A model generated the notes under the pieces. It searched no databases. It was given only the letters and a program-made list of their open reading frames with translations, and was not told the origin of the DNA. A stretch of DNA of 64,000 bases from Eledone cirrhosa (lineage: Eukaryota): NCBI GenBank assembly GCA_964016885.1, contig OZ024740.1:296112001-296176000 (forward strand), in the 5' to 3' direction. The first letter of the stretch is position 1. Every line of letters starts with the position of its first letter. This document shows positions 1 through 42,203 of the stretch, one piece after another. Made by a program: the position numbers and the translations under genes.

Positions 1-5571
<5,571 letters not shown>

Positions 5572-14700: not shown

Positions 14701-15328
14701 TGACAAAATAATGGTTTCTGATTTAAGCACAAGGCCAACAATTTTGGGGGGCAAGGGAAGTCGATTAAATCGATCAATGCATTACTGATGCTTTATTTTA
14801 TGGACTCCGTAAGAATGAAGGGCAAAGCTAAACTCAGAAAGTAAAGGGCTGTAACTATTTACCATAAAGCATGTTGTCTGACGCTCTACCGATACTGCCA
14901 ATCCACCGCCCTCTGGGACTAAATAATTGTTTCTATTTTTGGCACAAGGCCAGCAATTATCCCAGTGCGTTACTGGTACTTTATTTTGTCGATCCCGTAA
15001 GGATGAATGGCAAAGTTAACCTCGACGGGATTTGAACTCAGACCGTAAAGGGCTGTAACTCTATGCTGCAAAGCATGCTTCCGACCCTTTACCATTGCTG
15101 CCAATCTACCGGACTAAATAATTGTTTCTACTTTTGGCACAAGGCCAGCTATTACCCCCAGTACATTACTGGTACTTTATTTTATCGACCCCGTAAGGAT
15201 GAAAAGCAAAGTTAACCTCGGCAGGATTTGAACTCAGAATGGCAAGGGGCGTAACTCTATACGTCAAAGCATGGCGTCCGACCCTCTACCGATACTGCCA
15301 ATCCACCGCCCTTACCGGACTAAATAAT
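14701..15328 (-). mobile_element. Array of three SINE copies separated by the direct repeat ggactaaataat
   Basis: Repeat at 14916, 15111 and 15317, with a degenerate tgacaaaataat at 14701. Confidence 0.9.
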
Positions 15329-21363: not shown

Positions 21364-24300
21364 CTAGCAGTTTAGCCCGGCGTTGCTCGGGTTTGTTCAT
21401 TTGCTATGAAAAGTTACATACAGGTGAACGTGGTTTGAAAGCGAATAAGCTTATCAATTAAGTGCATAAAGCAGTTGAACCGGTTATTAAATGTTACGAA
21501 CCAATTAGCATTTGGGTCAATCAATGATGGGTTAATAATCTTCCAATAGCGAATTTAGTAGACCAAAGTTGCAATATGGTGGCCGTGATGCCGCTGGGTA
21601 TCAGATCTGTCCGCCGTGGGATACCCTACCAGGAAATAGTGTTCCAGACGGCATAGCTCCAACACCTGCACCAACATCTATAGCACCTCTTTGTAGACGA
21701 TATTGCGTGTCATCCCTTGAGGAGAGTAAGCAAAAAGTCCATTCCTGCTCCCTGCGCGGGAACAGGCAACATAAAGTTGGCCATGGGAGAAGCTTGGCTC
21801 CCCCAAATGGATGCCCGCCACCGACAATGTTTGCCCTTGTGACTTGTTAATGGACATAGCAAAACATGGTCTCACCGGGTATTGGGATCGCCGGAAATCG
21901 AACGGGATATCTGACGCCGAGGGGAAAAGGTTCATCCTTGGAATGAAAACATTCTCCCCTCTTCCGCACCCCGTTACAATGGTGGCCTCAATCAAGTGGG
22001 TGTCAGTGACTTGACGACCATGCGAGTACCGTTGCACTGCTTTGGTGGACGCAAGTTCCTTATTAGCATAATGGGACAGCCAACCCTAAGCTTAATAATG
22101 CGAGGTGGGAGCCCTGGGGGCTCAAGGAGATTTAATAACTCAACCGGATAATTAACGATATCGTCGGGGTCTGATTTGAAGATGTGCTCTTTACCGGGAA
22201 TCTTCTCAATCAGCTGCTCGTTAATAAAATTAACCATGGTATTTTTCGGAGCAAGGATGGCTCTTTCGCTGAGCCAATCGAGGTTTTTAAAGTTAGATGA
22301 GACATTAGGAAAAACTGCTTCCCAAAGGTCAGAAGGGCTGCTCACAATGTTGCACAGGGTGTCGATTGCTATGCCGCCCTTGTCACCCGCAGGGATCTTG
22401 CCCTCACCAAGTGCTAAAATGTTCTGTGCTGCAGACATGTTGTCACCATGTAAATGAGCACGCATATTTGTGCTCGGGTACAAACTATTCACCTGGAGCC
22501 ACAACATGGACGACTTAAGACAGGCACGCACTTCATCAGCTCTTGTCCATTTGGGGATGACAGGCAGAGTTTTCCGAAAAGCCCCTGATAGCAGAAGGGT
22601 TACGACACCCATAGGAGCCGTAGAATCCCTAATGTCTTTCCGGTCCTTGTCCAATGCCTCAAGGGCACCCTTGTGTGCCATTGTGCACTCATCCCAAACA
22701 ATGAGGCAACATCTTTTGAGAACCAGAGCTTTTTGTGAACTCTTGCTGATATTGCATGTTGGTGTCTCAGTTTTTACTAAATCCAAAGGGAGTTTAAAGG
22801 TTGAATGTGCTGTCCTGCCTCCCGGCAGCAAAGTAGCAACGATCCCGGACGATGCACCGGACAACGCAACTTTTTTCTCCTGACGAATCTTAGCGAGAAT
22901 CAAATTCGTCACAAAAGTTTTTCCGGTACCCCCAGGAGCGTTTTTTATTGGGGAGATCAGGGGGTTTTTTTTTTTACCTTGAGGTATAACCAGTCAGTAG
23001 TTCCTTCAAAAGCTCTGGCGGTTCCGTAAGAGGGGGCAAGGTGACCTTACCGTTTAAGCAGCACATTGCAGGTGGCTCCCCAGCCCACTTTGTAGCATTG
23101 CAGAATTGGCAATTGAAGCGCATCTCGCCTATATTTATGTCAGAGCGCATCGAGTAATTAACGTTTTGCTCATACTTGAAAGCCCGTAGGTGCCAGTAAG
23201 GGCTGTTGGGGCTCGTCACACCGCGTGCAGCTTCTCGCCGTCGACTGTTACGCTTGAACGTAGAACATTGGTCGTGTGGTTGGTGGGAAGGTCTGGCAGC
23301 AATAGCAGAAGCAACATTTGCAATGCTAATGGACCGCCCGTCTGCATCTTCAGAAGCCATCAAGTTCGTAGGAAGGCGAGCCGTCCGTTGTTTTAAACGT
23401 TCCAAAGACCTGGAAGCAGCATTAGTCGCATCGTTTCTAGCCAGGCGCTTCGACCTTTGTTCACGGTCTCTGAAGCCCTGGAAGAAGCCTGGTATGAAGC
23501 CATTTTGGCTAGGCGTGCGGTGCGCTGTTGGAAACTTTCAGCGGCTCGACATTCTGCTGAACGTAAGGCTGTCTGTGAAAGTCTTGAAGCATTTTCCTCA
23601 GAGGACTCGTTTGCTATAGTAGCCTTTTGCGCCACTGCTGACGCGGTATGTCGACTGAGGCGACTTCTCTTTTTAGGTGGCATTTTATGTCCAAAAGAAA
23701 GGGTGAAAGTTACTTCTGCAGAAAAATTGACTTTGAAAGTATAAGGCTGATAATTGAATGTAAAAAGATTGATAAGAAAGGCCCCCCCAAAAAAAATTTA
23801 CAGGTATTTGTATGTATGTGTGTATTTTTATGTCGAAAATAAAGGGTTAAAGTTCCTTATACAGAAAAATATAGTTTGAAAGTGTAAGGCCGATTGAAAA
23901 ACTTAGTTTAGTAAATGAAAGTCAGCTTCGAAATGGAGTTTGAACGCGCTAATACAAACACACACACATATACCCGTCTTTTAGTGTGTCTGTTTGTTTC
24001 TCTTTATCATTATATCCCTCTTTATCCTTATATGCTATTGTTATTTCTAAAACAAACTGTGTATGCGTTGATTGATTGAAATTCCCGCGTTCCTGTTTCT
24101 ATGACGTCAATCGTAACCATACCAACATATATGTGTGTGTATACACCCACATATATGTGTGTATATGTTTTTTTTCAATGTTTCTCTTTTTCACAAACAC
24201 TTATAAGAGAAGGTAGCAATTTTAAGGGGAGGTGATGAAGGGAGTAGATATAGGAAACGTATATCATATGAGAGAGGAGAAATCATTTATTGTTGAAATA

Positions 24301-34600: not shown

Positions 34601-35170
34601 TAAGAAGAAACAAACGGAAGTTACATGTAGTGGGTTATATTTTAGTAATTTTAGTGGTATATTCTTGAGGCAGCAATATATATACAACACATCAGTTAAT
34701 ACCTATCGATGCATGGCACCCAACAAACATGTAAACATTGATGTGGTTTTCTATTAATCATTAAAATAAACACAACAGTTTCAGAAACATGCAACGCCTA
34801 ACTTGGGGCCAAGATGCAAAGTGTTTTAACCCAATTTCTTGATAAAGTTGTATTTGCAAACTAATAAGTTACAGCTGTCTCGGATCAAATGGAAAAAAAA
34901 CTTATTCCCCTTTTGAAGAATTTGGTTTGCCGAATAAAGAAATTAAAACTTTCCGGATTATTTTACTACGTTTAATAGGCATGTCAGTTGTATCAATATT
35001 CTTAATTGCTCCATCCCGTGAAACCATAGAGATTTACAGATACTTTACGTACGACTATGAGTTCAAATCTCGTCATCTGGCGTTGAATAAATACCAGTAA
35101 TATATGGAAAAATACCATTTGCAATCTGCACTTAAATATTGATTTTTAGATTTAATTAAAATGAACTATT

Positions 35171-35429
35171 ATTATTAATGTATGTATTTATTGTCGGCCT
35201 TGTGGCCAATAAATGAAATCATTATTAATGTATGTATTGGCAGTATCGGTAGAGGGTCGGACGTCATGCTTTGCAGCATAGTTACGTCCCTTTATGATCC
35301 GAGTTCAAATCCCGCCGAGGTTAACTTTGCCTTTCATCCTTACGGGGTCGATAAAATAAAATAACCAGTAATGTACTGGGTAATTGCTGGCCTTGTGCCA
35401 AAAGTAGAAACAATTATTAATGTATGTAT
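35171..35429 (+). mobile_element. Two SINE insertions (tail-only and near-complete) between three copies of attattaatgtatgtat
   Basis: Repeat at 35171, 35221 and 35413. Confidence 0.88.
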
Positions 35430-35652
35430 ATATGTATGTATAGTTCTGTAACTCCCGAGGGCGTCATAGGAGCGCCGTATAGACATGAGTTGTTTTTAGA
35501 GCATTTTTAAAAACTTGGCGGAGCCCATCTCCTCTCGAGGTTTGAATACAGCAGAATTGAAGAAAGAGATATAAAGGAAGAATCGACACCAGTACTAGAC
35601 TGGTACTTTTTTGTATCTACCTCGAATGAATGAAAGGCAAAGTTGACCTATT

Positions 35653-36259
35653 ATTATTAATACTTACACACTGAGTTCAAATCCCGCCGAGGTTAACTTT
35701 GCCTTTCATCCTTACAGGGTCGATAAAATAAAATAAAATACCAGACAGGCACTTGGGTTGATTTAATCGACTTTTCCCTCCCCAAAAATTGCTGAACTTG
35801 TGCCTATATAAGAAACCATTATTAATACTTACGCAAGGGCGGTGGATTGGCAGTATCGCTAGACAGTTGGACACCATGCTTTGCAGCATAGAGTTACGGT
35901 CCTTTACGGTCTGAGTTCAAACCCTACGGAGGTTAACTTTGCCTTTCATCCTTACGGAGTCGATAAAATAAAGTACCAGTATCGTACTGGAGGTCGATTT
36001 AATCGACTTTCCCCTCTTCCCAAATGACTGGCCTTGTGCCTAAATCATTATTAATACTTACACGGTGGATTGGCAGTATCGGTAGAGGGTCGGACGCCAT
36101 GCTTTCCAGCATAGTTACGTCCCTTTACGATCTGAGTTCAAATCCCGCCGAGGTTGACTTTGCCTTTCATCCTTACGGGGTCGATAAAATAAAGTACTAG
36201 TAATGCACTGTGTAATTGATGGCCTTGTGCCTAAAGTAGAAACAATTATTAATACTTAC
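35653..36259 (+). mobile_element. Three SINE copies between four copies of attattaatacttac
   Basis: Repeat at 35653, 35818, 36047 and 36245. The units differ in 5' truncation and in long versus short form. Confidence 0.92.
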
Positions 36260-36719
36260 ACATAGATTAACTACCCCGAAGCTAGATTAATTCAAAATAG
36301 AGAACCCTCTCTCACTCTTTTTCGCTTTTCACTATTCAGAAAAATTTAGTGATACTGATGAAAGAATAAATCTCTTTACGGGTAATTGTAAATAACATTT
36401 ATAAATTATTATCAATAGCTTAATGAATATAATAAAGTCGGTTTCGCTGTTGTCAGAGAGTCTCTAGTTGTACAATTAAAGAAAACTTGGCCTGATTTAC
36501 TTTTTGTTGTATATTTACATAGTTAAGTTTACTACACAAATATATAGAACGATACTGTCTAGTATGTTTTTTTCATACCGTTTAGACAAGATCCAGTGAA
36601 ATAACTTTGACAGAGCCAATAAATAAAATTCAAAATAAACTTAAAACATAAATATTGAAACGAGAACGCACGTTGATTTATTTTTTTCTCCTTTCTATAT
36701 ATGAACAATACATCTCTAA

Positions 36720-37330
36720 AAATAAATATTTTTATATCGACCCCAGCAATTGACCGGTATTTTATTTTAACAACCCAGAAAGATGAAAAGCAAAGTTGAC
36801 CTCGGTCGGGATTTAAACTCAGAACGTAAAGGGCTGTAACTATTTATCCCACGTTCTACCGCTACTGCTAATCCACTGTTTTTCTAATAACCCTAAAAAT
36901 AATTGTTTCTACTTTAGGCACAAGGCCAGCAATCACCCAGTGCATTACTGGTACTTTATTTTATCGACCCCGTAAGGATGAATGGCAAAGTTAACCTCGG
37001 CAGGATTTGAACTCGGAATGTAAAGGGCCGCAACTCTGTACCACAAAGCAGGTTGTCCGACGCTCTCCCAATCCACCGGTCTTCTAATAACCATAATAAT
37101 AATAATGATTTCTACAATAGGCACAAGGCCTGCAATTTTGGAGGAGGGGAAAGTCGATTTAATCGACCCCAGTTCATTACTGGTGCTTTATTTTATCAAC
37201 CCCGTAAGGATGAAAGGCAAATCTAACCTCGGCGGGATTTGAGCTCAGAACGCGAAGGGCCGTAACTCTATACTGCAAAGCATGGTGTTCGACGCCCTAC
37301 CGATACCGCCCTAATAATAATAATAATAAT
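36720..37330 (-). mobile_element. Three tandem SINE copies separated by ttctaataacc/(taa)n
   Basis: Three family cores, with spacers at about 36882, 37082 and 37311. Confidence 0.85.
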
Positions 37331-37374
37331 TTCTATAACATCGAGTGGAATTGATAACGAAATGAATCCAAGTG

Positions 37375-38061
37375 TAAATATGTAGACAGAAAGTGATCGC
37401 AATGAATGAAAGGTGTATGGAGTGGGCTGCGAGCTTTGAACAAAGATAGTGAGTTTGCAATAATTTTACAGTTAAATATGTAGACAGAAAGTGATCGCAA
37501 TGAATGAAAGGTGTATGGAGTGGGCTGCGAGCTTTGAACAAAGATAGTGAGTTTGCAATAATTTTACAGTTAAATATGTAGACAGAAAGTGATCGCAATG
37601 AATGAAAGGTGTATGGAGTGGGCTGCGAGCTTTGAACAAAGATAGTGAGTTTGCAATAATTTTACAGTTAAATATGTAGACAGAAAGTGATCGCAATGAA
37701 TGAAAGGTGTATGGAGAGGGCTGCGAGCTTTGAACAAAGATAGTGAGTTTGCAATAATTTTACAGTTAAATATGTAGACAGAAAGTGATCGCAATGAATG
37801 AAAGGTGTATGGAGTGGGCTGCGAGCTTTGAACAAAGATAGTGAGTTTGCAATAATTTTACAGTTAAATATGTAGACAGAAAGTGATCGCAATGAATGAA
37901 AGGTGTATGGAGAGGGCTGCGAGCTTTGAACAAAGATGGTGAGTTTGCAATAATTTTACAGTTAAATATGTAGACAGAAAGAGATCGCAATGAATGAAAG
38001 GTGTATGGAGTGGGCTGCGAGCTTTGAACAAAGATAGTGAGTTTGCAATAATTTTACAGTT
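37375..38061. repeat. 98-bp tandem repeat, 7 near-identical copies
   Basis: Unit taaatatgtagacagaaagtgatcgcaatgaatgaaaggtgtatggagtgggctgcgagctttgaacaaagatagtgagtttgcaataattttacagt starting at 37375, 37473, 37571, 37669, 37767, 37865 and 37963. Confidence 0.97.
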
Positions 38062-38091
38062 ATCCAAAATGTTGTGTAGAGTTTTCAGTAT

Positions 38092-38746
38092 GGGCGGTGG
38101 ATTGGCAGTATCGGTAGTGCATCAGTCACCATGCTTTGCAGCATAGTTTATAGCCCTATACGTTCTGATTTCAAATCTCGCCGAGGTTAGCTTTGCCTTT
38201 CATCCTTACGGGGTCGATAAAATAAAGTACCAGTAATGCACTGGGGACGATTTAATCGACTTTTTGCTCCCCCAAATTGCTGGCCTTGTGCCTATTGTAG
38301 AAATCATTATATACACACACGGTGGTGGATTGGCAGTATCGGTAGAGGATCAGACGCCATGCTTTCCAGCATAGTTACGTTCCTTTTCGATCTGACTTCA
38401 AATCCCGCCAAGGTTGACTTTGCCTTTCATCCTTACGGGGTCGATAAAATAAAGTACCAGTAATGCACTGGGGACGATTTAATCGACTTTTTCCTCCCCC
38501 AAATTGCTGGCCTTGTGCCTATTGTAGAAATTATTATATACACACACGGCGGTGGATTGGCAGTATCGGTAGAGGATCAGACGCCATGCTTTCCAGCATA
38601 GTTACGTTCCTTTTCGATCTGACTTCAAATCCCGCCGAGGTTGACTTTGCCTTTCATCCTTACGGGGTCGATAAAATAAAGTACCAGTAATGCACTGGGT
38701 AATTGCTGGCCTTGTTCTTATTGTAGAAACAATTATATACACACAC
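38092..38746 (+). mobile_element. Three tandem SINE copies separated by attatatacacacac; includes a near-identical 227-bp duplication
   Basis: Repeat at 38306, 38533 and 38732. The ORFs 38236-38463 and 38463-38690 are near-identical. Confidence 0.9.
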
Positions 38747-38747
38747 A

Positions 38748-39079
38748 CGTCCGGGTTTCAAAAAGTTCGTGCAAAAAAGTACATAACTAAAAATCGTATG
38801 CGGGGATTTTGATCTCAATGCACCTGTACGTTTTCATACTTATGTGTCATAACATGTCCTAACATGCATGTTCCAACGCGGCGCCGCCAGTCGGAAGTCA
38901 GCACCCACTCAAGCAACATGTCCTCCATCAAAACATCAAATTCGGGCTGAAGTTAAGGTGGAAGAGCAGCCAAATCATTGACGCTCTGGAGCAAGTTTAT
39001 AGGGACAATGCTCCAAAGAAATCAACAATTTACAAATGGATAAATCGTTTTAGAAGTGAAAAAGATAAGGTTGAAGATG

Positions 39080-42003: not shown

Positions 42004-42203
42004 NNNNNNNNNNNNNNNNNNNNNNNNNNNNNNNNNNNNNNNNNNNNNNNNNNNNNNNNNNNNNNNNNNNNNNNNNNNNNNNNNNNNNNNNNNNNNNNNN
42101 NNNNNNNNNNNNNNNNNNNNNNNNNNNNNNNNNNNNNNNNNNNNNNNNNNNNNNNNNNNNNNNNNNNNNNNNNNNNNNNNNNNNNNNNNNNNNNNNNNNN
42201 NNN
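42004..42203. other. Assembly gap (200 N)
   Basis: Exactly 200 N, which looks like a fixed-size scaffold spacer. Confidence 0.99.

Follow-up and report, generated by a model that had tools for sequence, protein, structure and literature searches.

Head-to-tail SINE arrays around locus-specific target duplications in Eledone cirrhosa and their probable origin by serial insertion

Layout of the focal array

The window, that is the whole stretch of 64,000 nucleotides (64 kb) analysed here, contains at 35653-36262 three SINEs in one orientation, separated and bounded by four copies of a short target sequence (Table 1). The 15-mer ATTATTAATACTTAC is present exactly four times in the window (35653, 35818, 36047 and 36245) and has no occurrence in 1.30 Mb of other loci of the genome; shuffling the mononucleotides of 35600-36300 2,000 times never produced a word of more than 9 nt in four copies. 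A preliminary description, made from the letters of the window, had reported four repeat copies separating three non-identical SINEs, and this was borne out: the 15-mers are identical, and the units are a truncated long, a full long and a short form. A target duplication is present at all three junctions. The right ends of the copies vary, copies 1, 2 and 3 matching copy 4 over 18, 15 and 17 nt, respectively, which is the pattern expected of separate duplications.

Table 1. Coordinates of the focal array and of the further SINE arrays in the window
Feature	Position	Strand	Description
SINE-related fragment, older	35581-35649	-	81%; abuts target copy 1 in opposite orientation
Target copy 1	35653-35670	+	Native left context; 18 nt identical to copy 4
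SINE unit 1	35671-35817	+	Long form, 5'-truncated at consensus position 74 (spans 74-214); 88% to consensus
Target copy 2	35818-35837	+	15 nt, then GCAAG ahead of the SINE head
SINE unit 2	35838-36046	+	Full long form, tail minus 7 nt; 90% to consensus
Target copy 3	36047-36063	+	17 nt
SINE unit 3	36064-36244	+	Near-full short form; 97% to consensus; lowest rare-variant count
Target copy 4	36245-36262	+	Native right context
Array	14701-15328	-	Trimer short-short-long; three 12-nt targets identical, a fourth copy diverged
Array	35171-35429	+	Mixed: 17-nt target, 33-nt LINE 3' stub (35188-35220), target, short SINE, target
Array	36732-37330	-	Loose pile of three units, head-to-tail; spacer in two imperfect copies; no tail on last unit
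Array	38093-38746	+	Trimer; three 15-nt spacers; upstream target copy absent

Contigs of runs X18 and X19, which come from one sample (possibly the source), are identical to the window at 36229-36801 and 34900-35221; contigs of runs X1-X17, holding a small share of the words, were left out as evidence. The contigs aligned to 34900-39000 are dominated by SINE copies, and no allele or orthologue with 0, 1 or 2 units emerged from these alignments. The left junction (35652-35680) is uncovered by the contigs of four runs and no record spans the array, as might be found if haplotypes had been wrongly joined in the assembly, although the uncovered junction by itself decides nothing. The probability of such an artefact is nevertheless very low, given about 10^4 exact junctions of this kind on both strands, the agreement of the right junction with contigs from two runs of one sample, and units much more unlike one another than alleles would be.

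The SINE family and its abundance

The consensus of the family is 214 nt in the long form and 183 nt in the short form. Its tRNA-like head carries a Pol III A box, TGGCAGTATCGG, at consensus position 11 and a B box, GTTCAAATC, at position 78. A weak tRNA-like fold was called by ARAGORN at a lowered threshold only, and neither ARAGORN at its default setting nor Rfam gave a match in the region. The A and B boxes, short length, dispersal, high copy number, variable target site duplications (TSDs), 5' truncation and simple-repeat tail point to a tRNA-derived SINE. The family is putatively of the octopus SINE type, that of the octopus OK, OR1 and OR2 SINEs (Ohshima and Okada 1994). At many loci a G, AG, AAG or TAAG leader often stands between the target copy and the GGCGG of full-length copies, and may either mark where the transcript really starts or have been added without a template.

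The exact tail word occurs 287,281 times and the exact head word 104,851 times in the 3.0-Gb genome, and the copy number of the SINE is estimated at about 4-5 x 10^5. The preliminary description had proposed a genome-wide count of multimers: exact junctions of tail, 15-45 nt and head number 9,970, on both strands, against 156 expected under uniform placement, a 64-fold excess. Two controls gauge regional clumping. The same word pair set 60 nt further apart, which takes in arrays with truncated middles, was found 482 times (3.1 times uniform), and tail-to-tail pairs, whose number selection against inverted copies may have lowered, 722 times (3.4 times uniform). In 79 unselected 10-kb stretches at round coordinates, 15 of 121 SINE units (counted at 80% identity or more) directly follow another, or 12.4% (interval 7.7-19.4%); pattern counts corrected for tail recall put the share of such re-hits at about 15%.

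Spacers and target motif

The spacer is absent from both consensus sequences, which disposes of the possibility, raised in the preliminary description, that it is part of the SINE. Under offset-tolerant matching, 114 of 199 junctions have a spacer that agrees over at least 10 nt with what follows the final tail, the null being 6.1% when parts were mixed between dimers; in a set of 124 junctions this procedure recognized 75, versus 49 by prefix matching, which is blind to offset spacers. Among 92 dimers, all three target copies were found in 19, the spacer and downstream copy only in 31, other combinations in 10, and no shared target copy of 10 nt or more in 32. As described earlier, each array has its own repeat: spacers are not reused between arrays, the three 12-mers seen twice among 141 being of low complexity. 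The arrangement of an Alu-like dimeric SINE, with one internal spacer at many loci inside an outer TSD, was not found among these dimers, and an outer duplication around a foreign spacer was seen in 3 of the 92.

Of 62 native upstream targets, 51 begin with YATTAT (ATTAT preceded by C or T), a count partly set by the matching rule, and the motif amounts to about 9 bits in all. The target duplications are mostly 11-20 nt long. One 32-nt target context is present both at L100:3169, around a monomer, and at L159:1538, around a dimer, 12 Mb apart; either the locus has been duplicated or the site is a favoured one within another repeat.

Other arrays in the window

The layout of the focal array had been said to recur at four other places. 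This holds for 14701-15328 and in part for the remaining three (Table 1). In the array at 14701 the diverged target copy stands after the long unit, which is the most diverged of its units. The first target there seemingly carries the GGTA of the next unit's head, which is only suggestive, TAAG being a common leader anyway. The first unit between the three 17-mers of 35171-35429 is the 3' end of a LINE and not a SINE, and the array at 36720-37330 has an (ATT)n run upstream.

The units of the array at 38092 have private variants in common, and its middle unit is chimeric: the variants in its 5' half are those of unit 3 and the variants in its 3' half those of unit 1, which indicates local duplication. 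Two dimers that exchanged sequence while out of register would be expected to yield such a chimera. At 37375-38062, stopping 30 nt before this array, a 98-bp unit is repeated in seven tandem copies that are 98% alike.

Relationship of neighbouring units

The three focal units show pairwise identities of 81, 85 and 88% and have no rare variant in common, and their array mates rank from 95th to 405th in similarity among 451-480 comparable copies. Their rare-variant loads are 5/104, 8/173 and 2/173, and unit 3 is likely the last arrival. Near-identical units with common truncations, as in a SINE-derived satellite, are not seen in the focal array and are seen at 38092 and at locus L002, where neighbours are 98% alike.

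The relatedness of neighbours was measured after pooling the window with the 79 unselected stretches and with a set of targeted loci. The targeted loci comprised the 10 best matches, 90 of the first 100 junctions listed (all on C1), 7 further loci and 30 loci for each order of mixed dimers, and are biased toward exact motifs. Once duplicates had been dropped, together with eight loci bearing satellite-like arrays and all units below 80% identity or with fewer than 60 aligned columns, the set held 564 units out of 809 and, among them, 215 adjacent pairs. No rare variant was common to the members of 185 of these pairs, one was common in 22 and two or more in 8; the corresponding figures for 4,565 random pairs are 4,169, 368 and 28. 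Pairs with at least two are thus in excess (8/215 versus 28/4,565; Fisher p=1.5e-4). Twelve of the 215 adjacent pairs are at least 95% alike, versus 6.4% of random pairs, and the mate was the closest relative in one pair of the 215, a count biased by short overlaps. Most neighbours are therefore as unrelated as random copies, and a small, real excess of duplicates is present. The preliminary description had argued from unlike units against simple tandem duplication, and had proposed relatedness within arrays as the check. Its argument stands for the focal array and for the 185 unrelated pairs; it fails at 38092, where the units are close relatives, and genome-wide for the excess just given.

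These figures bear directly on the alternative that one unit of target plus SINE was tandemly duplicated by unequal exchange or slippage, its copies then diverging or being converted by dispersed copies. The chimeric array at 38092, the neighbours at L002 and the excess of pairs sharing two or more rare variants are accounted for in this way, and in a clam, TSD1-(SINE-TSD1)n arrays whose units are highly similar are ascribed to unequal recombination in the accessible sections of PMC11481361. The focal units, however, differ in form, truncation and tail as well as sharing no rare variant, and the LINE stub at 35188 cannot be the duplicate of a SINE. Four identical 15-mers are moreover improbable (0.3-5%) if they are as old as the divergence of the units, a modest argument because older copies age under serial insertion too. 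For the focal array tandem duplication is largely refuted, and we consider it very unlikely. The absence of any common rare variant in 185 pairs makes re-insertion at a duplicated YATTAT target the likely main route.

Order of insertion

Mixed dimers occur as long-then-short 1,136 times and as short-then-long 1,070 times (p=0.17), and in 106 pairs it is the upstream unit that has fewer rare variants, in 99 the downstream one. With both orders about equal, the age polarity and the "ordered record of SINE subfamilies" that had been suggested are not upheld. Growth at one end, of a CRISPR-like or telomere-like kind, was not found in these counts; the lack of polarity in order or load implies that arrays grow on either side. 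Rare variants per site are 0.024 in short and 0.061 in long forms, and the long-form load may partly reflect rare long subfamilies. When the order of insertion given by duplication length was compared with age, three of three cases were concordant with one matching procedure (p=0.25; few decisive cases), and offset-tolerant matching gave four concordant, two discordant and one tie.

Co-oriented units without polarity would also be expected if all units of an array arrived in one event or one cell generation, through repeated nicking or a multimeric transcript. Against this, neighbours show no correlation in rare-variant load (Spearman -0.08), the focal units have unequal loads, outer duplications around a foreign spacer are rare, and spacers are not shared between loci. 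A single event is accordingly a highly improbable origin, and separate insertions are preferred.

The probable partner LINE

The 33-nt stub at 35188-35220 matches a LINE 3' end, and 20 loci with a related end show that terminus. The frames upstream of these ends score RVT_1 and zf-RVT. The LINE ends in GGCCCTTGTGGCC..GAAATCATT and the SINE in GGCCTTGTGCC..GAAAC(A/C)ATT; common to both is a GGC-loop-GCC motif followed by GAAA.C.ATT. A SINE on the same strand begins within 50 nt after 5 of the 20 LINE ends, and an SINE on the opposite strand after none of them. The LINE thus combines a reverse transcriptase bearing a C-terminal zinc motif with a SINE-like 3' end, as looked for in a Tx1-type partner, and is a candidate for that type. 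Judging from the likeness of the tails and the shared targets, the SINE is probably mobilised by this LINE with the same tail. An RTE-like partner was rejected: the RTE-like ends in the loci compared run into (GAT)n tails, which are not the tail of this SINE.

A further repeat family, ending in ...GCACTGTACACAATAATTTTCATTATT, lies beside SINE heads or tails at L033, L065, L147, L150, L162 and other loci. At L161:1136-1550 an open frame directly upstream of a LINE-type 3' end presumably resembles an STT3 oligosaccharyltransferase exon.

Origin of the arrays and rate of re-hits

The order target-SINE-target-SINE-target-SINE-target is likely the outcome of three independent events of target-primed insertion, in each of which the locus-specific target was duplicated, with the LINE of the same tail as the probable driver. 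That serial insertion regenerates its own target, as first proposed from the window, is supported by the unrelated neighbours, the spacers lying outside the consensus, the YATTAT targets, and the presence of a LINE stub and a SINE within one duplication. In the proposed mechanism the LINE endonuclease would nick at YATTAT, where the ATT tail of the RNA could prime, and a second nick 10-20 nt further on would produce the target duplication. Both new copies would remain targets, so that a later element could land on either side, and unequal exchange may afterwards lengthen the resulting dimer, as in the array at 38092.

Unrelated units around one target would also result if different SINEs entered a single empty site in parallel on separate alleles and were then recombined through the 15-nt target. 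That some sites are strong is suggested by one target word that serves both at L100, with a monomer, and at L159, with a dimer, the two being loci of a repeat. This course would, however, need the same rate of re-hits plus exchange through 15 nt. In some dimers (L022, L032 and L102), moreover, the upstream copy matches the spacer beyond its match to the downstream flank, a pattern that requires insertion into an occupied site. We give parallel insertion very little credence and retain serial insertion at the occupied site.

With some 4-5 x 10^5 copies, a 9-bit target preference and regional clumping, re-hits are expected at about the rate observed. Over all sites of the unselected stretches, those flanking SINEs make up 6.4% of the motif target weight at present and about 3.2% averaged over the expansion. 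Multiplied by a clumping factor of 1.65-3.4, this weight predicts 5-11% re-hits in a rough model whose motif was trained partly on the same sites; the 12.4% seen and the approximately 15% from pattern counts are at or above that range. On this rough reckoning, motif preference and clumping would account for most of the excess, leaving at most a small residue, and special homing would be unneeded. It seems rather unlikely that an occupied site is struck more than an equally good empty one, the ATT tail and duplicated target together offering a better substrate.

If occupied sites were indeed favoured in this way, the SINE and its Tx1-type LINE would be preparing sites for their own further insertion; the arrays, tens of thousands in number, would then offer a genome-wide relative chronology of subfamilies through their duplication boundaries and a source of SINE-derived satellites.

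Comparison with known systems

The closest parallels were sought in published tandem insertions, and are described here from the accessible sections of the articles cited. Tandem copies of the crocodilian SINEU-3, mobilised by Tx1-Mar, sandwich the TSD and are read by the author as sequential insertion (Kojima 2015, PMC4494074). The likeness extends to a target preference shared with a Tx1 LINE; the differences are that SINEU-3 has an snRNA head and a Mariner target, whereas in the present family the head is tRNA-like, the target is the short motif YATTAT, and exact junctions number some 10^4. Double insertions in Drosophila (McGurk and Barbash 2018, PMC5932611) likewise show a TSD at the tandem junction, distinct 5' truncations of the neighbours and later growth by unequal exchange, but concern P, hobo, jockey and R1, and the main text of that article nowhere uses the word SINE. 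For tandem Alu elements (El-Sawy and Deininger 2005, as related in PMC3783187), new copies arose beside heads and tails about equally, and the enrichment was gone after correction for nick-site preference; Alu depends on the L1 endonuclease, a TT/AAAA target and an A tail, in contrast to the ATT tail and YATTAT of this SINE.

The clam arrays of PMC11481361 have an identical layout and are also from a mollusc. Their units are highly similar, attributed to unequal recombination, and involve 3% of SINEs, whereas here neighbours are mostly unrelated and about 12-15% of units follow another. Head-to-tail multimers are reported for B2 (40%), Dip (49%) and Ves (11.5%) in PMC8466645, with a comparably high share of co-oriented multimers, of up to eight units; that article, in its accessible sections, leaves their origin open and mentions neither TSD sharing nor how closely neighbours are related. 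The octopus families OK, OR1 and OR2 are cited in the corresponding sections of PMC4758252 and PMC4824008, and among the articles listed in a search of the openly accessible literature none describes such SINE multimers in octopus. Nothing pertinent was found in PMC12840619, PMC13756887 or PMC11699766; PMC10702118 and PMC13282606 were also among the articles consulted.

The arrays thus likely reflect a known process, sequential insertion around one target duplication, in a new family, of which they provide a well-quantified instance; they are neither a new kind of system nor an ordered memory. For one abundant family this answers a question left open for B2 and Dip in the sections of PMC8466645 referred to above: the majority of head-to-tail neighbours inserted independently, and local duplication accounts for a few percent. 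Multimer loci are unsafe as presence/absence markers and should not be annotated as dimeric subfamilies, and the dimers are a substrate for tandem growth.

Other features of the window and the genome

Whole SINE dimers plus flanks have been copied by segmental duplication at L141 and at G000:C1:211.68, 212.10 and 212.91 Mb. Tandem repeats of about 45 bp from the SINE head, that is, SINE-derived minisatellites attached to SINEs, are present at G000:C1:2,040,306-2,044,267 and at L014, L021 and L027.

Within the window, positions 1-5569 are 5.5 kb of almost pure A/T microsatellite. On the reverse strand, 21992-23537 holds a PIF1 helicase frame (PF05970, PF21530) with an open frame upstream, which we take to be a likely Helitron remnant. 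A higher-order satellite occupies 42225-64000 and adjoins a gap of N at 42004-42203; its blocks combine a unit of 22 bp, five of 15 bp and one of 20 bp in arrays that alternate between forward and reverse orientation, and the pattern recurs every 3.5-5 kb.
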